A stretch of DNA of 64,000 nucleotides from Mustelus asterias (GCF_964213995.1 NC_135804.1:59148001-59212000); one strand, 5' to 3'; shown: positions 687 through 62,919, numbered from the stretch's first letter. The notes: a model not told the origin generated them from the sequence alone. Made by a program: numbers and translations.

Positions 687-2930
687 TTACTGATAGTGTG
701 ACATAAATCCAACATCCCTGTTTAGGCTGTCCTCATGTGTGCGGAACTTGGCTATCAGTTTCTGCTCAGCAACTCTGCGCTGTCATGTGTCATGAAGGCC
801 GCCTTGGAGAACGCTTACCCGAAGATCAGAGGCTGAATGCCCGTGACCGCTGAAGTGCTCCCCCACAGGAAGAGAACAGCCTTGCCTGGTGATTGTCGAG
901 TGGTGTTCATTCATCCATTGTCATAGCATCTGCATGGTTTCCCCAATGTACCATGCCTCGGGACATCCTTTCCTGCAGCGTATCAGGTAGACAACATTGG
1001 CCGAGTTGCAAGAATAGGTACCGTGTACCTGGCAGATGGTGTTCTCATGTGAGATGATGGCATCCGTGTTGATGATCCGGCATGTCTTGCAGAGATTGCT
1101 GTGGCAGGGTTGTGTGGTGTTGTGGTCACTGTTCTCCTGAAGGTTGGGTAGTTTGCTACGGACAATGGTTTGTTTGAGGTTGTGCGGTTGTTTGAAGGCA
1201 AGAAGTGGGGGTGTGGGGATGGCCTTGGCGAGATGTTCGTCTTCATTAATGACATGTTGAAGGCTCCAGAGGAGATGCTGTAGCTTTTGCGCTCTGGGGA
1301 AGTACTGGACAACGAAGGGTACTCTGTCCACCGTGTCCTGTGTTTGTCTTCTGAGGAGGTTGTTGCAGTTTTTCACTGTGGCGCGTCGGAACTGTCGATC
1401 GATGCGTCGAGCGCCATATCCTGTTCCTATGAGGGCATATTTCAGCATCTGGAGGTGTCTGTTGTGATCCTCCTCATCCGAGCAGATCCTATGTATACAG
1501 AGGGCTTGTCCACAGGGGATGGCTTGTTTAATGTGTTTAGGGTGGAAGCTGGAGAAGTGGCGCATCGTGAGGTTATCCGTGGGCTTGCGGCACAGTGAGG
1601 TGCTGAGGTGACCGTCCTTAATGGAGATGCATGTGTCCAAGAATGCAACTGATTCTGGAGAGTAGCCCATGGTGAGTCTGATGGTGGGATGGAAGTTGTT
1701 GATGTCATCATATAGTTGTTTCAGTGCTTGTTCACCATGAGTCCAAAGGAAGAAAATGTCATCGATGTATCTAGTGTATAGCATCGGTTGAAGGTCCTGT
1801 GCAGTGAAGAAGTCTTGTTCGAACCTGTGCATGAAGATGTTGGCATATTGAGGTGCGAATTTGCTCCCCATGGCTGTTCCATGTGTCTGGATGAAGAACT
1901 GGTTGTTGAAGGTGAAGACATTGTGTTCCAGGATGAAGTGGATGAGTTGTAAAATTGCATCTGGAAACTGGCAGTTGTCGGCGTTGAGTACTGAGGCTGT
2001 TGCAGCAATGCCATCATCGTGGGGGTTGCTGGTGTAGACATCCATTGTGACGAGGAGTGCTCCTGGTTCAACTGCTCCATGTGTGTTCAGTTTGTGTAGG
2101 AAGTCTGTAGTGTCGCGACCAAAGGTGGGGGTTCTTTGTACAATGGGTTTCAGGATGCCCTCGACATAGCCGGAGAGGTTCTCGCACAGGGTCCCATTGC
2201 CCGATACGATGGGACAGCCGGGTGTATTTGCCTTGTGTATCTTCGGGAGGCAGTAGAGATCTCCAACACGGGGAGTACGTGGGATGAGAGACGGAGGGTG
2301 CTCTGAAGGTCTGGATCAAAGGTCTTGATCAGAGTGTTGAGTTGACAGGTGTGTTCTTTGGTCGGATCTGTGGGTAACTGTCTGTAGTGTTCCTCGTTGT
2401 TCAGTTGTTGGTACACTTCTTTGCAGTAATCTGTTCTGTTCAGTATGGCGATGGCCCCTCCTTTGTCTGCTGCTTTGATGACAATGTTGCGGTTGGTCTT
2501 GAGAGCGTGGATGGCATTGCGTTGTGCTTGGGTGACGTTCGGGGCTGTCTTGTGAGTGCGGCTAATGAATTTGGTGTTGATGCACCTCCTGATGGCTTGG
2601 GCATACATGTCAAGTCGAGGGCAGCAGCCTTCTGGAGGAGTCCAATTTGACTCTTTCCTCTTCGGTTGCACTGCGGATCTCTCTGTCGGCTGTTCCGGTT
2701 CATTGGCTGTCTCATTGTGTTCGTTGTTGGCCTCTTGGGGTTTGTGGAAGAACTCCCGTAGCCTCATTTGCCTGATGAATTCCTCTGTGTCTGCTGCGAG
2801 ACTAATGGGGTCTATTTTGGTGGTGGGGCAAAAATTGAGCCCTCGGCTGAGAACTTCGATTCCATCTGGTTGACGTGTGCAGTCCGACAAGTTGACAATA
2901 GACTTCCCTGCGGTGGTACGGTTTTCTACT
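687..2930 (-). pseudogene. Disrupted PLE RT/GIY-YIG polyprotein
   Basis: Frameshift near 2290, and an in-frame TGA at 921-923 where the copy at about 13010 reads CGA (QTLRQR). Confidence 0.85.
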
Positions 2931-3063
2931 GATCTTCGGGTAAGCGTTCTCCAAGGCGGCTTTAACGACAGACGACAAAGCAGAGTCGCTGAGCAGAAAC
3001 TGATAGCCAAGTTCCGCACACATGAGGACAGCCTAAACCGGGATCTTGGGTTTATGTCACACT

Positions 3064-3370
3064 CAAAGACTATTTCCTCGGGTGGATGGAGCTATTACAA
3101 GGGGGCATAACTATAGGGTTCATGGTGGGAGATATAGGAAGGATATCAGAGGTAGGTTCTTTATGCAGAGAGTGGTTGGGGTGTGGAATGGACTGCCTGC
3201 AGTGATAGTGGAGTCAGACACTTTAGGAACATTTAAGCGGTTATTGGATAGGCACATGGAGCACACCAGGATGATAGGGAGTGGGATAGCTTGATCTTGG
3301 TTTCAGATAAAGCTCGGCACAACATCGTGGGCCGAAGGGCCTGTTCTGTGCTGTACTGTTCTATGTTCTA
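3064..3370 (+). mobile_element. 5'-truncated CR1 3' end inserted in the PLE; same subfamily as the full-length copy at 49795-54540
   Basis: Encodes QRLFPRVDGAITRGHNYRV...HMEHTRMIGSGIA*, nearly identical to the end of ORF 49878-52892. Ends in a CTATGTT-type tail. Confidence 0.9.
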
Positions 3371-38559: not shown

Positions 38560-41176
38560 ATGACGAAAATGTTTTTTCTGTGCCTGATCCTCCAAGGGAT
38601 TAATCACACAGGTAGCAATTTATTCATTTCCCCAGTTGCTTAAATTGATAATTAGCTCTGAAGTATTTCTATGTCAATTTAGCGAACCTTATTTCCTCTG
38701 TCTAGATTATGTTGTGAGCCTTTCACTTTTATGTTGTATCCAATTCAATTGACGTGTGTTTGTCTTAATTTCTGACAGCTGCGGACCACACTTCGTTCAG
38801 TGTGTCTCAAGCACCAGAAGAAACGACTGTATCCAAAGGGGGAAACATCACCTTCTACTGCATATTCCCCATTTTTCAATCCCAAGCCTGGATACGGGTG
38901 TTATGGTGGAAACATGGTGAGAATGAATTCCTGCATTCAAGCCCAGACAAGAGAAAAAGGTTTGGTATGGAAAGTAAAGTGAACGGTTTCTTTCGCTTAC
39001 TAAATGTGACAGTGCAAGACTCTGGAATCTATCACTGTACGGTGATCCGTCAGGGAGTAGGTCGAGGAAATGGAACCGGATCACATCTAATTGTGCATGG
39101 TAAATGTCAAATATACTTGTCAAATATACACAGCATCTTTTGACTGTTTCACCGATCCATTTTTGTCAGTGTTAACATGATTAGTAACACAAGCAATAGT
39201 GCTCTCTCTATATAATTGTTATTTAGACATGCAATGCCACGCGCAGAGTACTGCGAAATGAATCAATATTATTGAATTTGACAACAACTATGAAGGCAAC
39301 CTATGCGCCAACTGAATGACCGTGAAAACTCACAGCAGTTTCCAAACATATAACTGAATGAAAATCATTTATAATAAAACGCATCATTCAATCAGTACAT
39401 TGATCTTGCTCATTTGAGACACGCACCACCCTGAACATCATTTATGTTAAAATTGATCTCCCAATAAGTACACCATTCTTGTTAACTTCAGATTCTTTTT
39501 CTGCCTCTATCCCTGTCCTGGCGACTTAATATTCCTGAAATCCTGAGATTTGGATGAGGTTCGTATACAATAGGTAGAAATTTAAAAAGTCAGGAGGCCG
39601 CGTTTTTGAATTGTACTATTATAAGAAAATGAAACGAATGTATATCAGAATCAAACTTAATTTATCCAAATCGAGCACATTACTCGACTTTGTTCATTCT
39701 GTGTTCCGCAGCGGCCCCAACCCCATTGAATCTTGTCTCCAGGGCATCTGAAGGGAATTTATCTGCGCCTTTGACTCTAGTCTGTGAAACGGCAGAGTTT
39801 TATCCGGAAAATTTCACGCTCACTTGGTATAAAAATGGACTCGAAACTACATTTGGAATACACACCAGTAAAGTGCAAAACAGAGAGGGACTATATGAAG
39901 TTTCCAGCTCTTTGGTTGAAACGCAGCCTGTCCCGAGCGACGCCAATTATACGTGTTTGGTATCTCATGTCTCCCTCAAGACTCCGGCGGTTGTCATCTA
40001 CACTCGTTCTAAATCTAGCCAAGGTACGACGACAGGAATCCAAAAAGGGATTAAATAATTATTGAATTCGTAAAGGGATATAATGGACAGTTTGCACATA
40101 AAGATACTCATGGCGATAGTTCACGACATTTCATGGGAAATATAAATGAAAATATTAGATTTAATTGAGTAATATACTTCAACCTAATGTTATGTTATAA
40201 CATCAGCTGCACACATGTTCTCAGTTAAGCCTTATTGTTGATAATTGCCACTATTGTATGTATAACGTATACTAGAACATACGAAATCGAAATCGGAGTT
40301 CATCATAGGGCCCGTCGAATCTGCGTGGCCATTCGATAAGATAATTACTGACTTTCTACATCAACTCTACTTTCCAGTCCGATCCCCTAACGATTGCAAC
40401 TTTGTATATACTCAGTGACTCAGCATTCACAGCCTTCTGAGGTACTGAATTCCTAAGATTTGAAACTCTTGAATGAAGAATTCTCTCCTAACCGCAGCCT
40501 GAGATGACCAAACCCTTATCTTGTGACTTTGATCCAAAGTACTAGAGTTCCAGCCAGAGATAGCAGTTTGCTGATCTAATTTATGGAAAGAAATACATTT
40601 TTTCCCGTTCTGTATTATAGTTCCTGGGAACACTATTAGATTAACCAATGAACTGTTCGTCAGCCTCTTTGCAAAACACTCGCCACTGTGTAACATATAT
40701 TTATGCTCTTATTAATTTTGCAGATTATGTCGGTATGTCCCTTTACTACTCGTGTTTCAGATACGTGGTGGGTGTATTGGCGCTTGTACTACTCCTGATC
40801 ATCACTAGGGCGCACTGCCAAATACCGATTAAGAATGGTAAGCGTTTGATTTTAATACAAAACGTCAGATACCGAGCGTCGAGAGAGTGAGAGTCAGTAC
40901 TACATGGAGAGAGGATTTTATTGAAGTCGGAATTTTCTATTCAGAGCAAACCACTGATTGCCCCAAACAGCTCGGCACAGCATCGTGGGCCGAAAGGCCT
41001 GTTCTGTGCTGTACTGTTCTATGTTCTATAGTGACCAATTCTTCACGTCAAAACACGGTAATTATTGTAAAACCATACCACAAATGGATCTGATTAACTG
41101 TATATCTGTCACTGACATTTTTCACTTTGCAGCAACTGCTGAATTAAATATGTCGTTTCGCACAGTTTCCAACTAG
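38560..41176 (+). CDS. V-C1 immunoglobulin-superfamily membrane receptor, gene 1 (NKp30-like VJ-type V + C1 + TM with Arg). Exons 38560-38611, 38779-39099, 39712-40023, 40724-40837, 41133-41176; 280 aa
   Basis: Leader MTKMFFLCLILQGINHT. V domain VSQ.P..ITFYC..VLWWK..QDSGIYHC..GNGTGSHLIV. C1 domain LTLVCETAEFYPENFTLTWYKNG..EGLYEVSSSL..YTCLVSHVSL. TM exon ..YYSCFRYVVGVLALVLLLIITR. Tail ATAELNMSFRTVSN*. All introns are GT-AG phase 1 and the exon lengths sum to 843 nt. Confidence 0.88.
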
Positions 41177-42388
41177 TCTGTAGTGAGACTGCAGTTAGTT
41201 TGTGTGGAGCCTTGTATCGTTCAGACCTGAAATGGTTGCAGGTCATTGCTGCCCTGCACAGGAGTTGGCATTTCGGACAGTCGCGAAATCTGAATTGGAA
41301 AAACATGTTCTATTTTGGTACCTTCTCGAGTAAGGAGTTTGCAACAATTGACAATCGAACTAAGTGAGTACTTTAAAAAACCTCCTCATGACTAAATTTC
41401 AGTCATTCACGTGGCAAAAGCGTAAGGAGGACAGCAGCGCTGCCAAGAACCTGCACGTTCATTTGCGCATCTCCGGAAAGGTTTGAAATGAGAAAATAAG
41501 GATTGCATAATGAGCAATTTATTTATTGTTGGAAGTATTTGTCTCGCAAGAAATACTTAACACCAGGAGCTCGGGAATGAAACTGTTTTTGCGAAAACAA
41601 AATCAGGCGTGGCGTTGATGGTTCGCTCTTGTCCCTTTCGCGAGATCGCAGAAGACCAATTTGTCCCCGCCATCCAGTGTTTACTGTTCTAAATAGATAC
41701 GGAGCAGAAAGCAAAACTGATGGTTTTGTTGAAATCTAAAGAGGTAATCATTTTTGTAGCTTTACCTATATTTGGAAAAAAAAGTTAGCGAATCTGTATT
41801 CAAGCAGAGCAGGAACTTTAAGGATTTCAGTAACTTGGTGTGGCGAGCGCTTTGACATTTTTTAATTTAAATTCTAATTATAAATTTTAATTATAATTAC
41901 GACTTGCAATAACCGGTATTCAGATTTGCAGTTATTTGAAATTATTCAGCATGGCTTCTGTGCTTTATCTCTAGCCATTCTGCTTAATGTTTCACCAGTA
42001 GTATGTAAAATGATGCAGGGAAGTGAAATAGGCATATTTAAATATTTTTCCGGTCCATGTAAGAAACACAGGTTGAAATCGCCAATATGTTGCAGCACAT
42101 TTAAGTAGAACCATGTACACTCCAAAACTTATAATTGAATCGGAGAGGCCCGTGCACCCTCAGGCGGTGCTGAGATCAGACCGACAGCGATTATCACAGG
42201 ACTATGTGTTACCATAATATTCCCGTGATAACGAATAATAAATACAAGGTTGGTTGTTTCCTGTCGTGTATTGCAGCTCCGGTTCTGTGCATTTTTTTCT
42301 TCCTCATGAATGATTTGTGTAGAAGCCAATAAAACTGGAAAGAACACCAATTAATAATCTTTCCAAACATTAATTTTCAGACCAAACA

Positions 42389-43069
42389 AGTTATCATCAT
42401 GGATAAGGTCAATAAAATATGTTATTAGAGCTTGCTTATTTCAATCAAGCATTATTATTTTTCGTGCGTAAAATTGCAAAACCTGGTTTTTGACCTGCGT
42501 GTTTCGTATTTTGACGTCTAGAGTTGATGTTTCTTTTGAAATGGAGTCTGCAATATATTTGCTGGCCCACAGAAGCCTCAGAACACAGGAGCCTTCGCGG
42601 GTTAGAACTGTCAAACTCCAAAAGAAAACAAATGAAGAAGATTAAATGTAACAAGTGAGAAAAGAGTAGCTTATGACATTATTATGTAACTGAATATAAA
42701 ATGTAAGTGTTTGCTTTTGCTTAACGATTTGTGGAAATTTATTTGCTTTTGCTTAACGATTTGTGGAAATTTACTTGAATTGCCTATAATAGTTATTTGA
42801 TTGCCTTGATTGCCTTGTGTAGTTTGACGAATCGGTGGCACTGAATGGATGAATACACTGACTGTTGAGTTATCATCATGTATAAGGTCAATAAAATATA
42901 TGTTATTAGATCTTGCTTATTTCAATCAAGCATTATTAATTTTCGTGCGTAAAATTGCAAAACCTGGTTTTTGATCTGCGTGTGTCGTATTTTGACGTCT
43001 AGAGTTGATGATTCTTTTGAAATGGACTCTGCAATATATTTGCTGGCCCACAGAAGCCTCAGAACACAG
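42389..43069. repeat. Direct repeat pair of about 200 bp (42389-42588 and 42868-43069) with an internal short tandem duplication (about 42710-42772)
   Basis: The two copies read nearly identically from agttatcatcat to agaagcctcagaacacag. tttgcttttgcttaacgatttgtggaaattta occurs twice between them. Confidence 0.9.
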
Positions 43070-49418: not shown

Positions 49419-49877
49419 TACCCTATGTAAACCCCAGGTTATCAACAGTCTGTCGCCCATTTTTTCCCTCTCATCAAGTTCCCTCATCCATTTACTCTCT
49501 GCTCGCTAATCTACATTTGCTCCCAACTAAGCAATTGCATTTTTCAAATCCTCAAGCTGCTTTTCATGACCTGTCCCCTTCCTCCTTCTGTAATCCTCTC
49601 CAGCCACAGAACAGGCGGAGGTCTCCGAACTCCTCTAATTCTGGCCTCTCCAACATCCCCAATTTTCACTGCTTAACCATTGGCAGCGTGCGTTCATCTG
49701 GCAAAAATCTCTAATTCCCCTCTGAACCCTTCTGCCTCCACTTCTTTTTCCTCCTTTTAGATACTTCTTTGATGAAGTTTTATCGCCCATGATATAGAAC
49801 ATAGAACATAGAACAGTACAGCACAGAACAGGCCCTTCGGCCCACGATGTTGTGCCGAGCTTTATCTGAAACCAAGA

Positions 49878-52781
49878 TCAAGCTATCCCACTCCCTATCA
49901 TCCTGGTGTGCTCCATGTGCCTATCCAATAACCGCTTAAATGTTTCTAAAGTGTCTGACTCCACTATCACTGCAGGCAGTCCATTCCACACCCCAACCAC
50001 TCTCTGCGTAAAGAACCTACCTCTGATATCCGTCCTGTATCTCCCACCACGAACCCTATAGTTATGCCCCCTTGTAATAGCTCCATCCACCCGAGGAAAT
50101 AGTCTTTGAACGTTCACTCTATCTATCCCCTTCATCATTTTATACACCTCTATTAAGTCTCCCCTCAGCCTCCTCCGCTCCAGAGAGAACAGCCCTAGCT
50201 CCCTCAACCTTTCCTCATATGACCTACCCTCCAAACCAGGCAGCATCCTGGTAAATCTCCTCTGCACTCTTTCCAGCGCTTCCACATCCTTCTTATAGTG
50301 AGGTGACCAGAACTGCACACAATATTCCAAATGTGGTCTCACCAAGGTCCTGTACAGTTGCAGCATAACCCCACGGCTCTTAAACTCCAACCCCCTGTTA
50401 ATAAAAGCTAACACACTATAGGCCTTCTTCACAGCTCTATCCACTTGAGTGGCAACCTTTAGAGATCTGTGGATATGGACCCCAAGATCTCTCTGTTCCT
50501 CCACAGTCTTCAAAACCCTACCTTTGACCCTGTAATCCACATTTAAATTTGTCCTACCAAAATGAATCACCTCACATTTATCAGGGTTAAACTCCATTTG
50601 CCATTTTTCAGCCCAGCTTTGCATCCTATCTATGTCTCTTTGCAGCCTACAACAGCCCTCCACCTCATCCACTACTCCACCAATCTTGGTGTCATCAGCA
50701 AATTTACTGATCCACCCTTCAGCCCCCTCCTCTAAGTCATTAATAAAAATCACAAAGAGCAGAGGACCAAGCACTGATCCCTGCGGCACACCGCTAGCAA
50801 CCTGCCTCCAATCCGAAAATTTTCCATCGGCCACCACCCTCTGTCTTCGGTCAGACAGCCAGTTACCTATCCAATCGGCCAACTTTCCCTCTATCCCACA
50901 CCTCCTCACTTTCATCATAAGCCGACCATGGGGGACCTTATCAAACACCTTACTAAAATCCATGTATATGACATCAACTGCCCTACCTTCATCAACACAC
51001 TTAGTTACCTCCTCAAAAAATTCTATCAAATTTGTGAGGCACGATTTGCCCTTCACGAATCCGTGCTGACTATCTCGAATTAATCCGCATCTTTCTAAAT
51101 GGTCGTAAATCCCATCCCTAAGGACCCTTTCCATCAATTTACCAACCACCGAAGTAAGACTAACCGGTCTATAATTACCAGGGTCATTTCTATTCCCTTT
51201 CTTAAACAGAGGAACAACATTCGCCATTCTCCAGTCCTCTGGCACCATCCCCGTGGACAGCGAGGACCCAAAGATCAACGCCAAAGGCTCTGCAATCTCA
51301 TCCCTTGCCTCCCACAGAATCCTAGGATACATTTCATCAGGCCCAGGGGACTTATCGACCTTCAGTTTATTCAAAACTGCCAAGACATCCTCCCTCCGAA
51401 CATCTATTTCCTCCAGCCTATTAGCCTGTAACACCGTCTCTTCCTCAAAAACATGGCCCCTCTCCTTGGTGAACACTGAAGAAAAGTATTCATTCATCAC
51501 CTCGCCTATCTCTACTGACTCCATACACAAGTTCCCACTACTGTCCTTGACCGGCCCTAACCTCACCCTGGTCATTCTTTTATTCCTCACATAAGAGTAA
51601 AAAGCCTTGGGGTTTTCCTTGATCCGACCCGCCAAGGACTTCTCATGTCCCCTCCTAGCTCTCCTAAGCCCCTTTTTCAGCTCATTCCTTACTAACTTGT
51701 AACCCTCAATCGAGCCATCTGAACCTTGTTTCCTCATCCCTACATAAACTTCCCTCTTCCTTTTCACAAGACATTCCACCTCTTTTGTGAACCATGGTTC
51801 CCTCACTCGGCCATTTCCTCCCTGCCTGACAGGAACATACCTATCAAGGACATCCAGTATTTGTTCCTTGAAAAAGTTCCACTTTTCATTAGTTCCTTTC
51901 TCTGACAGTTTCTGTTCCCAACTTATGCCCCCTAATTCTTGCCTAATCGCATCATAATTACCCCTCCCCCAATTGTAAACCTTGCCCTGCCGTACGGCCC
52001 TATCCCTCTCCATTGCAATAACAAAAGACACCGAATTGTGGTCACTATCTCCAAATTGCTCTCCCACAACCAAATCTAACACTTGGCCTGGTTCATTTCC
52101 CCGTACCAAATCCAATGTGGCCTCACCTCTAGTCGGCCCATCCACATATTGTGTCAGGAAACCCTCCCGCACACACTGCACAAAAACTGCCCCATCCAAA
52201 CTATTTGACCTACAAAGGTTCCAATCAATATTTGGAAAGTTAAAGTCCCCCATGACAATTACCCTGTGACCCCCACACATATCCATAATCTGCTTAGCAA
52301 TTTCTTCCTCCACATCTCTATTACTATTTGGGGGCCTATAGTAAACTCCTAGCAACGTGACTGCTCCTTTCCTATTTCTAACTTCAGCCCATATTACCTC
52401 AGTGTGCAGATCCCCCACGAAGTGCCTTTCCGCAGCCGTTAAACTATCCTTGATTAACAATGCCACTCCTCCACCTCTTTTACCAGCTTCCCTACACTTA
52501 GTGAAACATCTATACCCCGGAACGTCCAACAACCATTCCTGTCCTTGTTCTACCCATGTCTCCGTAATGGCCACAACATCGTAGTCCCAAGTACCAATCC
52601 ACGCCCCAAGTTCATCTACCTTGTTCCGGATGCTCCTTGCATTGAAGTAGACACACTTCAACCCACCTTCCTGTCTACCAGTACCCACCCTTGACCCTGA
52701 TACCTCCCCCAATACCTCACCACCCTCACTGACTTCTGGACTACAACTCCCTTTCCCACTCCCCTGACAAATTAGTTTAAA
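49878..52781 (-). CDS. CR1 ORF2: APE endonuclease + reverse transcriptase (open from 52892, no ATG upstream of the endonuclease)
   Basis: YFNARS, AITETW, YYRPP, GDFN and SDH endonuclease motifs; [24 protein letters not shown] and FADDTK RT motifs; no stops over 1004 codons. Confidence 0.93.
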   Translation of the reverse strand, partial: FKLICQGSGKGSCSPEVSEGGEVLGEVSGSRVGTGRQEGGLKCVYFNARSIRNKVDELGAWIGTWDYDVVAITETWVEQGQEWLLDVPGYRCFTKCREAGKRGGGVALLIKDSLTAAERHFVGDLHTEVIWAEVRNRKGAVTLLGVYYRPPNSNRDVEEEIAKQIMDMCGGHRVIVMGDFNFPNIDWNLCRSNSLDGAVFVQCVREGFLTQYVDGPTRGEATLDLVRGNEPGQVLDLVVGEQFGDSDHNSVSFVIAMERDRAVRQGKVYNWGRGNYDAIRQELGGISWEQKLSEKGTNEKWNFFKEQILDVLDRYVPVRQGGNGRVREPWFTKEVECLVKRKREVYVGMRKQGSDGSIEGYKLVRNELKKGLRRARRGHEKSLAGRIKENPKAFYSYVRNKRMTRVRLGPVKDSSGNLCMESVEIGEVMNEYFSSVFTKERGHVFEEETVLQANRLEEIDVRREDVLAVLNKLKVDKSPGPDEMYPRILWEARDEIAEPLALIFGSSLSTGMVPEDWRMANVVPLFKKGNRNDPGNYRPVSLTSVVGKLMERVLRDGIYDHLERCGLIRDSQHGFVKGKSCLTNLIEFFEEVTKCVDEGRAVDVIYMDFSKVFDKVPHGRLMMKVRRCGIEGKLADWIGNWLSDRRQRVVADGKFSDWRQVASGVPQGSVLGPLLFVIFINDLEEGAEGWISKFADDTKIGGVVDEVEGCCRLQRDIDRMQSWAEKWQMEFNPDKCEVIHFGRTNLNVDYRVKGRVLKTVEEQRDLGVHIHRSLKVATQVDRAVKKAYSVLAFINRGLEFKSRGVMLQLYRTLVRPHLEYCVQFWSPHYKKDVEALERVQRRFTRMLPGLEGRSYEERLRELGLFSLERRRLRGDLIEVYKMMKGIDRVNVQRLFPRVDGAITRGHNYRVRGGRYRTDIRGRFFTQRVVGVWNGLPAVIVESDTLETFKRLLDRHMEHTRMIGSGIA

Positions 52782-53698
52782 CCCCCCTGAAGAGCCGTAA
52801 CAAATTTCCCTCCGAGGATATTGGTGCCCCTCTGGTTCAGGTGCACCCCATCCTGTTTGTACAGGTCCCACCTTCCCCAGAACGTGTTCCAATTATCCAC
52901 GTATCTGAAACCCTCCCTCCTACACCATCCCTGCAACCACATATTTAACTGCACTCTCTCCCTGTTCCTCAACTCGCTATCACGTGGTACCGGCAACGTA
53001 CCAGAGATGACCACATGTTTCGTCTTGGCTCTCAGCTTCCAGCCCAGCTCCAGAAATTCCTGCTTTAAATCCCCGTCCCTTCTCTTACCTATGTCATTGG
53101 TACCAATGTGCACCACGACTTGTGACTGTTTCCCCTCCCCCTTCAGAATCTGGAAAACACGGTCTGAGACATCACGGACCTTGGCATCCGGTAGGCAACA
53201 TACCATCCGTGAGTCTCTTTTGCTGCCACAGAACCTCCTATCTATCCCTCTAACTAACGAGTCCCCAATAACTATCGCCCTCCCGCTCTCCCCCTTTCCC
53301 TCCCGAGCCACAGAGACGGACACAGTGCTGGAGATCCTCTCACTGCGGCTCCCCACTGGTATGTCATCCCCCTCAACCGTATCCAAAGCGGAATACTTGT
53401 TGCTAAGGGGAACGACCACCGGGGATCCCTGCACGGACTGCTTCCTCCCAGCCCCTCTCACCGTCACCCATCTGTTTTCAATCCTCGGAGTAACTGTATT
53501 CCTAAAGCTTGTGTCTATGGCCATCTCTGCGTCCCTGATGATCCTAAGTTCATCCAACTCCAGCTCCAGTTCCCTAACACGGTTTTGGAGGAGCTGCAGA
53601 TGGGTGCACTTCCCACAGGTGTAATCAGTAGGGACACTGTCGTCGTCCCTCACCTCAAACATAGTGCAAGAGGAACATTGCACTGCCTGCACACCCAT
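52772..53698 (-). CDS. CR1 ORF1: zinc finger/leucine zipper + SGNH esterase
   Basis: CSSC..CGKC zinc finger, LQNRVRELELEL coiled coil, IGDS, HIGTND and DGVH esterase motifs. Confidence 0.92.
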   Translation of the reverse strand: MGVQAVQCSSCTMFEVRDDDSVPTDYTCGKCTHLQLLQNRVRELELELDELRIIRDAEMAIDTSFRNTVTPRIENRWVTVRGAGRKQSVQGSPVVVPLSNKYSALDTVEGDDIPVGSRSERISSTVSVSVAREGKGESGRAIVIGDSLVRGIDRRFCGSKRDSRMVCCLPDAKVRDVSDRVFQILKGEGKQSQVVVHIGTNDIGKRRDGDLKQEFLELGWKLRAKTKHVVISGTLPVPRDSELRNRERVQLNMWLQGWCRREGFRYVDNWNTFWGRWDLYKQDGVHLNQRGTNILGGKFVTALQGGLN

Positions 53699-60211: not shown

Positions 60212-62919
60212 ATGTTGTCCAATCTGATCCTTCTGTTAACGTCCCTGTCTCTCCTGAAGATCATTTCAACAGGTATTGGGATATTATCTACCCCAACTGT
60301 CTTATTAAAGAAATAAATATTTCATTGTTCCCAAGTCGATAGAATTAAAGGCAGTTCGTCCTTCAAAACCTCTTCTGCATTTCCATGCAGAAACATGTTC
60401 TAAGCTCTCTCCTTTCGCATTGAATACAGTTAATTAATACAAACTTTAAATATACTTTCTAACAGGTGCTCCAGGAACTTCGATCAGAGTGTCTCAAAGT
60501 CCTAAACAGTTAACTATATTGAGGGGGACAAACATCACCTTCTACTGCATAATCCCCCTTTCTCATGACAATGTGGATGTCGAGGTGCTTTGGTGGAAAC
60601 AGGGTGAGAATAAATATATGACAATAGGAACCGATGACAGAAAACGATTCGATTTCAAAATTAAAGGAGGTGGTTCATTTGAGCTGCGAAACGCGACTCT
60701 CCAGGACTCAGGAATCTATCACTGCGCAGTGATCCGTCAGGGAAAAAATAGTGGAAATGGAACAGGATCAAATTTAATCGTCTGCGGTAAGTGACTGAAA
60801 TGGCCGGGAACATCAAGCACGCTGTTTTGCCATTATTTTATTGTGCTGCCTTTGATATTGTAAAGCTCTGTGCACAACTGCTAATTACGCAGCGGAGTGT
60901 GACATTTTATTTGCTGTGTTATTCCAAACTGCTGGAAATACTCAGCAATTCAGGGCATGTCTGCGAAGAGAGAGGCAAAGTTAAAGTCTCAGGTCTATCA
61001 ACTTTTTGAGTAATGAGGATATAATCCGTCTCTTATTCCTTACTCTGAACATTTCTCCACCAACCTGACTTTCCCCATGTTCTGTTCGCAGCTACACCAA
61101 CTCCGTTAAAGATTTTCGCTAAGCATCCCGCAAGCAATTCAACTACGTTCCTGACTCTTGTGTGTCAGACGGCTGGATTTTACCCGGGTGATTTGACCCT
61201 CCTTTGGTATAAAAATGGCGTCAACATCACAACGGTGGGAAATCCGATCAAACACCAGAACGCAGAAGGACTGTATGAAGTTTCCAGCTCTTTTGAAGAG
61301 CCGCACTTTGTGCGGAACGAAGCAGTTTACATCTGTTTGGTAACTCACATCTCCCTCCGGACTCCCGCCATTGCCATTCACACTGTTACCAACTCCTGCT
61401 CAGGTATGTGGCCAACAGGCCAAGAAGTGAAGTTAGCAGTTTTTAAAAATCAGAGAAAGGTATTGACATCACTAATCATGAAGATAGTTTTAAAATAAAA
61501 TACCGGTAAATTTAAAATTAAAGAGAAAATTGAATAATTCTATGTAAAATGTTATTGGCCCAACCCTTTTGTCAAAACGAAGTAATATCATTGTTGTTCT
61601 CCTGCCTATTGAAGCTCGGCAGGTTCCAAATTTTTAAAAAGAAAAAGTTGCAGGCGGGCTACATCTTCTGTCCATTTATTTTACATATCATGCTTATTAT
61701 TAAACACTCGCACTTGGCCATTTCTCATCCTGATTTTATATTTTCTATTACCAGTTTTCCTCACACGAGCTGCAGAACCAGAAGTGACAGTTTGTTTGGT
61801 TTGCCCAACTGTGAATGGGTCAGAAGTTAGTACTGTGAGCAGGCAGCAATGCCTCTCCATGATCTAGCGGTTAGGAGTAAAAACGCTGTTTTGTAATATT
61901 TCATTTCGCTTGCAGCCCAGGTCTGCAGTATAACTGATTGCGATTCATCTGTTTATTAATTAGCAAGTTCTGTTATTAACAAATAACCTCCCTCCGTACT
62001 GCTTCTTACTTCAGTTGACATGCTACACAAGATTCAATTTGCATATTAAGGGACTGAATAATGTCCATATTTCTCTTAGCAGTGGCGAGTTTCGTTTCAT
62101 TGAATTACGAATATTTTATTAAATAAGAGAAAACGACAAGTCAAGTGCAAGAACAAGTCTATTGATCCATCGAAATGTACTCGAATGGAATGTTTTGAGC
62201 GCCCCAAACTGGTACTCTCCCTCGCAGGTTATTCTGGTGTTGTGAGAATAAATTAGTTGGACATCAATTCAGTATGGTAAATTCCGAATAATTTGAAGTA
62301 ATGTTTTAAAGTTTATTTATTAGTCACAAGTAAGGCTTACATTAACACTGCAATTAAGTTACTATGAAATTCCCCTCGTCGCCACAGTCCGGCGCCTGTT
62401 CGGGTCAATGCACCTAACCAGCACGTCTTTCAGACTGTGGGAGGAAACTGGAGCACCCAGAGGAAACCCACGCAGACATGGGAAGAAAGTGCAAACTTCA
62501 CACAGACAGTGACCCAAGCCTGGAATCGAACTCGGGTCACTGGCGCTGTAAAGCTGCAGTGCTACTGTGCCGCCCCGATGCTCTGCTCTGATCATATTAC
62601 CCAGTTGCAGAAAACATGAGCACTAGTTTAACCAACAAATTAGGTAAAAGCAAATTACTGCGAATGCTGGAATCTGAAAGAAAAACGGCAAATGCTGGGA
62701 AATCTCAGCGGGCCTGAAAGCAGCTGTGATGAGACAATATTAATTCGAGGATTTTTTTTAGGTAGCGACCGAAATGAATTAGAACTCAGCATGATTTCAA
62801 TTTTGCAGAGTCTGATGGCAAGTATCAGTACATTTGGATTTCTGGATGTACGGTGGGTGGATTGGCTTTTCTGATATTCATGGTCATAATTGGGACGAGA
62901 GTCTGTCTGAAGAATACAG
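60212..62919 (+). CDS. V-C1 immunoglobulin-superfamily receptor, gene 2. Exons 60212-60272, 60466-60786, 61092-61403, 62809-62919; cytoplasmic exon uncertain (candidate 63156-63184)
   Basis: Leader MLSNLILLLTSLSLLKIIST. The V exon (321 nt) and C1 exon (312 nt) have the same lengths as in gene 1. TM exon ESDGKYQYIWISGCTVGGLAFLIFMVIIGTRVCLKNT. All introns are GT-AG phase 1. Confidence 0.85.
62308..62577 (-). mobile_element. tRNA-derived V-SINE in gene 2 intron 3
   Basis: B-box-like gagttcgattcc on the minus strand and V-domain; same tail type as 32222-32515. Confidence 0.8.

Follow-up and report, generated by a model that had tools for sequence, protein, structure and literature searches.

How would a receptor-like gene signal whose membrane segment carries one arginine near its outer end, and does the gene beside it, with an uncharged membrane segment, have a part in that signal? 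Both genes lie on the plus strand of the window, the 64,000-nucleotide stretch C4:59148001-59212000 of the 3.68-Gb Mustelus asterias genome, most of which is LINE and SINE sequence. An earlier note on this DNA had proposed that the first gene (gene 1) signals through an ITAM adaptor and that the second (gene 2) is a decoy, an inhibitory sibling or a partner chain. Judged from sequence, gene 1 does look activating and gene 2 inhibitory, but their pairing with each other does not hold up.

Two VJ-C1 genes and their family on C4

The window contains four Ig exons, which belong to two genes, each organized as leader-V-C1-TM with AG/GT exon ends in phase 1 (window positions):

38560..38611, plus strand: gene 1 leader exon, with ATG, hydrophobic leader and phase-1 GT donor
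38779..39099, plus strand: gene 1 V exon, with a J-like GxGT motif inside; 98% nucleotide identity to the V exon of the ITIM-type gene C4:59500334, flanks 56-74%
39712..40023, plus strand: gene 1 C1 exon, whose relatives are C1-set
40724..40837, plus strand: gene 1 TM exon, AG/GT, phase 1; Arg codon AGA at 40759-40761
40945..41057, plus strand: probable first cytoplasmic exon of gene 1, AG/GT ends, open in phase
40971..41031, plus strand: 61-nt LINE 3' end inside the probable tail exon, AG at both ends
41133..41176, plus strand: last exon of the first gene 1 model, AG acceptor; coding only if 40945-41057 is skipped
60212..60272, plus strand: gene 2 leader exon
60466..60786, plus strand: gene 2 VJ exon, 97% amino-acid identity to the Arg gene C4:59366352
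61092..61403, plus strand: gene 2 C1 exon, 98% amino-acid identity to the same Arg gene
62809..62919, plus strand: gene 2 TM exon, with Gly (GGA) in the Arg column

In both genes a J-like GxGT/S motif lies at the end of the V exon, inside the exon itself, which makes them non-rearranging VJ-C1 genes. Genome searches placed the strong matches of the gene 1 C1 exon on C4, at 58.8-60.0 and 67.6-70.0 Mb, and 58 of 59 matches of the gene 2 V exon on the same chromosome. Annotation of the 1.24 Mb around these matches yielded 57 C1-anchored genes; TM exons, located by HMM matches and each bounded by the next gene, were placed in 50 and in none of the other 7. Genes 1 and 2, like all 50 genes with a placed TM, have a single C1 exon ahead of the TM exon. 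Left out of the family counts are a lone V at C4:70.02 Mb and a gene at C4:54.66 Mb with V, C1 and a tyrosine exon but no placed TM; the latter (L124-L125, C4:54.656-54.666 Mb) is a divergent member of the family that stands by itself 4 Mb ahead of the first cluster. Separately, C8:50.17-51.09 Mb carries a dense array of about 25 C1 exons in both orientations, 33-34% identical to the gene 1 C1, which is a different family.

Named relatives are all from sharks, rays or chimaeras (17/17, 43/43 and 57/57 matches in three database searches), although distant relatives may be missed because the searches need shared 5-mers. Their automatic names are inconsistent, ranging over SHPS-1-like, SIRP-beta-like, tapasin-related, CD276, B7-H6-like and light chain; the naming of gene 1 used here rests on its C1 exon and homologues. 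The family, confined to cartilaginous fish in the profile search (57/57), has been hidden under these names, and it is large, where few innate on/off receptor families are known in sharks. A literature search found no account of the C4 cluster; Kinlein 2021, Ohta 2019, Fu 2019, Flajnik 2012, Ohta and Flajnik 2015 or their supplements may list its genes.

The membrane arginine and the cytoplasmic tail

The gene 1 TM exon translates as DYVGMSLYYSCFRYVVGVLALVLLLIITRAHCQIPIKN and reads as the earlier note had it. With the TM span judged from hydropathy, the Arg falls inside, not outside, the best Kyte-Doolittle windows of 19, 21 and 23 residues, at position 4, 7 and 9, respectively. It is followed by 15 uncharged residues and no more, so a helix excluding the Arg would be short. 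Across the family, the core of the TM alignment is gapless, and the column of the gene 1 Arg holds Arg in 20 exons, Lys in 2, Gly in 20 and other neutral residues in 8; columns +4 to +15 contain no Arg or Lys in any of the 50 exons. With 22 of 50 exons basic at this one position and none at +4 to +15, the gene 1 Arg is beyond chance.

This one TM column separates tail-less from tyrosine-tailed genes. Of the 22 basic genes, 1 is followed by tyrosine-tail exons; of the 28 neutral genes, 22 are (Fisher p 8.5e-8, which overstates the contrast since the family genes are related and not independent). A tail was scored as found at an HMM match of at least 25 bits, some matches containing stops or frameshifts, with DNA models seeded from these same genes. 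At least 15.9 kb was searched behind every basic gene, the tails of tailed genes ending 3.3-16.2 kb out, and the stretches searched were similar in length for basic and neutral genes. On the C1 tree, a quick tree of 99 columns with 36 of 81 forks open, independent contrasts could be drawn for 8 well-supported pairs: about 5 went the expected way and none the opposite way (p 0.0625). Confined to genome genes, the contrasts numbered 5 pairs (p 0.125). The exceptions are C4:69430160, which has both Arg and tail exons, and six neutral genes for which no tail was found.

The same association is seen among database proteins of other species: of 5 that are basic in this column 1 has an ITIM-like motif, compared with 22 of the 25 neutral ones (p 0.006). 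This set comprised 44 proteins, 34 with a placed TM; P0001 and P0030, which match paralogues in this genome almost letter for letter, were dropped together with two isoforms. A held-out set of 17 proteins, 16 of them with a TM (15 ray, 1 bamboo shark), had an ITIM in 0 of 2 Arg and 5 of 14 neutral proteins (p 1.0) and does not contradict the rule that Arg means no ITIM; many of its neutral models end soon past the TM, being either truncated or truly tail-less.

Several genes depart from the simple pattern. L028 (C4:69430160) and L024 (C4:68099275) are near-identical tyrosine-tailed duplicates with Arg in the key column of one and Met in the other, possibly a switch in progress or a dual-signal receptor. 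L011 (C4:59657431) and L053 (C4:69293245) are tailed genes with Arg at column +1 or +3 and damaged tail exons. A second activating-type TM class of 13 genes has Arg in the same column and Asp or Asn ending the hydrophobic stretch (L018, L019, L031, L032, L035, L036 and L044 at C4:59.54-59.96 Mb; L034, L043, L056, L057, L022 and L059); several have a stop just before the donor, and the Heptranchias protein P0005 is of the same type.

The tail of gene 1 differs in part from the one first proposed. The initial model, which joined the TM exon to 41133-41176, skipped the probable exon at 40945-41057. The paralogue L006 has the latter exon without the LINE insert and with an in-frame stop; in gene 1 the insert, 96.7% identical to LINE ends at window 3311-3370 and 49801-49861, shifts this early stop out of play. 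Translation of five possible tail forms (19-59 residues) revealed no ITIM, YxxL/I or YxxM in any, so that the short, motif-less tail stands; the statement that it has no tyrosine is correct for three forms, the other two having one Tyr each. The insert would give the tail an added Cys-rich hydrophobic stretch, and is a possible case of an exonised retroelement. A young LINE with a 1004-codon open frame, resembling endonuclease plus reverse transcriptase, lies on the minus strand at window 49881-52892, and its 3' end matches the insert. Forms with and without the insert both occur in contigs of sample S1, one of three contig sets from a single study, of unstated kind but behaving as DNA; the suggestion that S1 lacks the insert was rejected on finding a contig with its left junction.

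The genome also provides plausible adaptors. Two zeta-family TM exons (PF11628) exceed the cut-off, on C17 and C275, both with Cys and Asp in a C-x-x-x-D pattern; from their sequence features, we take them to be CD3-zeta and FcR-gamma. According to PMC13107469, CD89 associates with FcR-gamma by means of an Arg close to the N-terminal TM end, a contact for which both adaptor aspartates are needed. The same assembly is assumed for NKp30 and NKp46, and it is enough that the basic residue be correctly placed. A contact of the CD89 type, with two zeta-family exons in the genome, favours coupling of the gene 1 Arg to FcR-gamma or CD3-zeta. The proposed signalling through an ITAM adaptor is thus supported as a likeness: the Arg column tracks missing tyrosine tails, and both zeta-family adaptors are present in the genome. 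A complex prediction in which the gene 1 TM exon was combined with a dimer of the FcR-gamma-like one (score 0.03, mark 0.34, controls not folded) spoke neither for nor against the contact. We put the probability at roughly 70% that gene 1 is the activating member of a paired-receptor set, in which its Arg would pair with the aspartates of an FcR-gamma or CD3-zeta dimer to give an activating signal. The family would allow one to ask directly whether this type of coupling already worked outside the TCR in cartilaginous fish.

Probable opposite-type partners and the proposed descent of gene 1

Gene 2 carries its signalling exons past the window. Its TM exon translates as ESDGKYQYIWISGCTVGGLAFLIFMVIIGTRVCLKNT and is neutral as described earlier, with the G-C-T-V-G run (G-xxx-G spacing and a Cys) and no charge in the hydrophobic span. 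Its predicted cytoplasmic exons, sought in the genome and scanned for ITIM and ITSM, were found just beyond:

C4:59212044-59212087, 59213178-59213279, 59213880-59213981 and 59214179 onward: gene 2 tail exons

The tail opens with a 44-nt linker exon, continues with a 102-nt exon present in two tandem copies and closes with a last exon, each of these having AG/GT ends. The tail predicted from this genomic model contains the ITIM VTYAAV twice and the ITSM TTYAQI, by which gene 2 looks inhibitory-type, as the sibling alternative had it; such a tail speaks against a decoy. Gene 2 would recruit SH2 phosphatases. Its last exon stops after nine residues, where homologues go on with more tyrosine motifs, and is frameshifted relative to them. 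The two ITIM exons result from a 702-nt tandem duplication (L001:3178-3981, C4:59213178-59213981), which may replace the motifs lost by the frameshift. Gene 2 and its Arg partners share an extra Cys at the end of V and another at the end of C1 (window 60783-60785 and 61397-61399), which might form a bond between chains or between domains.

Genes 1 and 2 are not a matched pair: they are 55% identical in V and 52% in C1, while each has a 97% identical gene of opposite type elsewhere. Some 313 kb away lies C4:59500334, a neutral gene with a tyrosine (ITIM-type) tail, whose V is 97% identical to that of gene 1 at the amino-acid level; its C1 is 82% identical, and its TM exon 63% at the nucleotide level. 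Nucleotide identity between the two, taken per 50 nt, is 94-100% inside the V exon and 56-74% on both sides, and there are 2 synonymous differences in V versus 18 in C1. A rise in identity and a drop in synonymous change confined to the V exon is the pattern expected of a conversion tract limited to the ligand-binding exon. The 'off' partner of gene 1 is likely, on this comparison, to be C4:59500334, farther along the chromosome, and not its neighbour gene 2. Gene 2 is in turn 98% identical over about 1.9 kb to the Arg gene C4:59366352, 157 kb away; the identity ends after C1, past which the two diverge (TM 71%). Its V and C1 are near-identical to those of four Arg genes, and it would be paired with C4:59366352 and its copies. 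Three more opposite-type sets in the family have near-identical ligand-binding domains. For ligand hunting, the family supplies activating genes matched to inhibitory ones by 97% identity in V.

Two remnants behind the TM exon of gene 1 bear on its descent:

42062..42163 (start approximate), plus strand: decayed first tyrosine (ITIM) exon; donor GC, ITIM residues lost
42381..42410, plus strand: decayed start of the family's last tail exon; acceptor intact

The first, about 1.2 kb behind the TM exon, scores 18.0 bits with nhmmer (E 4.5e-4; best reversed-sequence control 6.1 bits) and is 64% identical to the gene 2 ITIM exon over 91 nt. The second is weak alone (7.4 bits, E 1.1) and 70% identical to gene 2 over 77 nt. 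The two are spaced 318 nt apart, compared with 317 nt in the inhibitory-type gene C4:59244045. These decayed tyrosine exons point to descent from an ITIM-bearing gene; no basic-TM gene other than gene 1 and L006 showed the paired remnants. In the mechanism we propose, an ITIM-bearing ancestor gained the Arg and lost the tail, and gene conversion would keep the ligand-binding V exon matched to inhibitory C4:59500334, so that both would bind the same ligand and signal oppositely.

Basic TM genes do not form one lineage. A TM-exon tree computed with the key codon removed needs six changes, and a single basic-TM clade is rejected (p-AU 2e-69). The 13 Arg genes with an acidic or Asn end form one group (support 91/75); the other nine are scattered among the neutral genes. 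As the tree is unrooted and has several long branches, gains can be told from losses only where fossil exons give direction. Codons in the key column are GGA or GGG for Gly and, in the scattered group, AGA, AGG or CGG for Arg. The gene 1 TM type appears older than this species, since the catshark protein P0010 shares 21 of 29 TM-exon residues with gene 1, including the Arg, and has a five-residue tail.

A broader account can be offered tentatively: that cartilaginous fish possess an undescribed family of germline VJ-C1 receptors, about 57 in number, which is either sister to SIRP and the antigen receptors or their forerunner, and whose activating members may have arisen several times by gaining a basic TM residue one base away from the inhibitory Gly codon, shedding the ITIM exons and having V refreshed by conversion, with an Arg-zeta/gamma contact like that of the TCR. 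If true, gene 1 and its fossil ITIM exons would let one read how an inhibitory receptor became an activating one in the oldest lineage that has adaptive immunity.

Gene 1 might instead be decaying or non-signalling, its Arg a leftover or at the membrane surface and the gene itself a pseudogene in the making or a ligand sink. The LINE insert in the tail exon points that way, as do the many broken family members (3 of 22 basic genes have stops in C1). So does the sister copy L006 (L006:5068-5069, C4:59350068), 98% identical to gene 1, in which a loss of about 100 nt has removed the TM acceptor together with most of the TM exon; L006 may be a pseudogene or the source of a secreted form. The TM acceptor region exists in three forms in the S1 contigs, intact, deleted as in L006, and frameshifted by a 1-nt insertion after 40744; S1 contigs span the Arg codon with no difference listed, although they may derive from the assembled animal and are not independent support. 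Decay is nevertheless unlikely: the leader, V, C1 and TM exons of gene 1 are open with AG/GT ends, its V exon was recently matched to an inhibitory gene, P0010 retains Arg and short tail, and basic residues are confined to a single TM column.

VJ-C1 domains often dimerise, and a single receptor could be built from the products of genes 1 and 2 in the manner of TCR alpha and beta, gene 1 giving the adaptor contact. The genes adjoin, the paralogues L006 and L007 are adjacent in the same order, and gene 2 has its extra cysteines. Against a heterodimer or partner chain, the V and C1 of gene 1 have canonical Cys pairs and no spare Cys, the Cys in its TM has no counterpart in the other aligned TMs, gene 2 bears predicted ITIMs itself, and the family is without two chain classes, Arg and neutral genes being intermixed by ectodomain. 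This two-chain arrangement is very improbable. The GxxxG and Cys of the gene 2 TM were considered as heterodimer signs and rejected as family traits (Cys in 20 of 50 TM exons, GxxxG in 12 of 20 Gly-column genes). Activation through DAP10 or DAP12 in place of FcR-gamma or CD3-zeta is better placed, yet still quite improbable. Two family members have Lys in the key column and, according to PMC13107469, NKG2D pairs with DAP10 through an Arg; that Arg sits mid-helix, however, and DxxxT/S adaptors otherwise take a central Lys, whereas the basic residue of gene 1 is near the outer TM end and columns +4 to +15 are never basic. The preferred reading of gene 1 is still that of an activating receptor coupled to FcR-gamma or CD3-zeta.

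Relation to known receptor families

By analogy, the C4 genes would work like paired activating and inhibitory receptors such as SIRP or Siglec-5/14, with which they share opposite-type members of near-identical ligand-binding domains (gene 1 and C4:59500334; gene 2 and C4:59366352). Likeness to SIRP extends to a V plus C1 ectodomain and to clustering of inhibitory (ITIM/ITSM) with tail-less members. Among the best 60 matches of the family profile to solved structures, SIRP-alpha and SIRP-gamma are the best chains that are neither antibody nor UrIg (E 2e-29 and 7e-26). They rank below an IgA heavy chain and UrIg2, and the scores of UrIg2 and Ig chains are no lower than those of SIRP. The top ESM Atlas feature matches of the chimaera homologue P0016 are SIRP-like (0.97). 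The SIRP ectodomain is V-C1-C1, however, with two C1 domains against one in genes 1 and 2, and the TM of SIRP-beta has a central Lys for DAP12, which none of the 50 TM exons has, the Arg of gene 1 lying near the outer end. A V-only profile retrieved mostly multi-domain I-set proteins, naming no family, and no SIRP among its best 60 solved structures. SEP-domain genes, which mark the human SIRP locus, are on C7 and C20 and not on C4, by this single synteny marker family.

The description of gene 1 as NKp30-like is borne out for the position of the Arg, but gene 1 has a C1 domain, and NKp30, presumably present in the set of solved structures searched, is absent from the 18 matches of the gene 2 V and from the best 60 of two family profiles. 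PMC13107469 and PMC12272517 describe an unsplit VJ exon, as here, an Arg in the upper half of the TM and an assumed zeta/gamma coupling; the NKp30 protein is one Ig domain and a stalk according to PMC12272517, compared with V and an intact C1 exon before the TM in gene 1. On these sequence comparisons, gene 1 does not appear to be NKp30. CD89 (Fc-alpha-RI) and NKp46 are alike in having an Arg near the N-terminal TM end and no signalling tail. They belong to another ectodomain class and locus, and by analogy the resemblance would be of mechanism only.

Activating receptors are said to have arisen recurrently from inhibitory homologues. Siglec pairs and the activating KIR and Ly49 forms have ectodomains unrelated to the shark family, and Siglec-14 uses DAP12. 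The conversion pattern is nonetheless the same in Siglec-5/14 and Siglec-11/16, where, according to PMC4042635, partial conversion limited to the ligand-binding domains homogenises their exons while the signalling ends differ; the activating Siglec member is often broken or missing.

Closest in layout are the non-rearranging UrIg/UrIg2 and PRARP/VJC1 genes, with a one-exon VJ followed by C1, the PRARP/VJC1 likeness being one of layout alone. UrIg2 is the best match of the gene 1 C1 (E 5.6e-17) and comes second in the search with the family profile. According to PMC12227049, UrIg is a secreted protein with three C1 domains, and UrIg2 has nine or more; genes 1 and 2 have one. An additional non-rearranging VJ-C1 lineage bears on the debate over the ancestor of the antigen receptor.

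Identity with B7-H6 (NCR3LG1), a name borne automatically by some ray models, was rejected: its synteny marker is MYOD1, and myogenic basic-domain genes are on C9 and C25, the family being on C4. No B7-H6 chain is among the best 60 family-profile matches.

Two further observations concern the surrounding sequence. On C4, the gene pairs 59541024/59699867 and 59567357/59726201 lie about 159 kb apart with identical C1 and TM sequences, which suggests either a very recent segmental duplication or an assembly duplicate. At window 924-3091, on the minus strand, a further reverse-transcriptase element has long frames that are open for 464 and 313 codons; by eye it looks Penelope-like.
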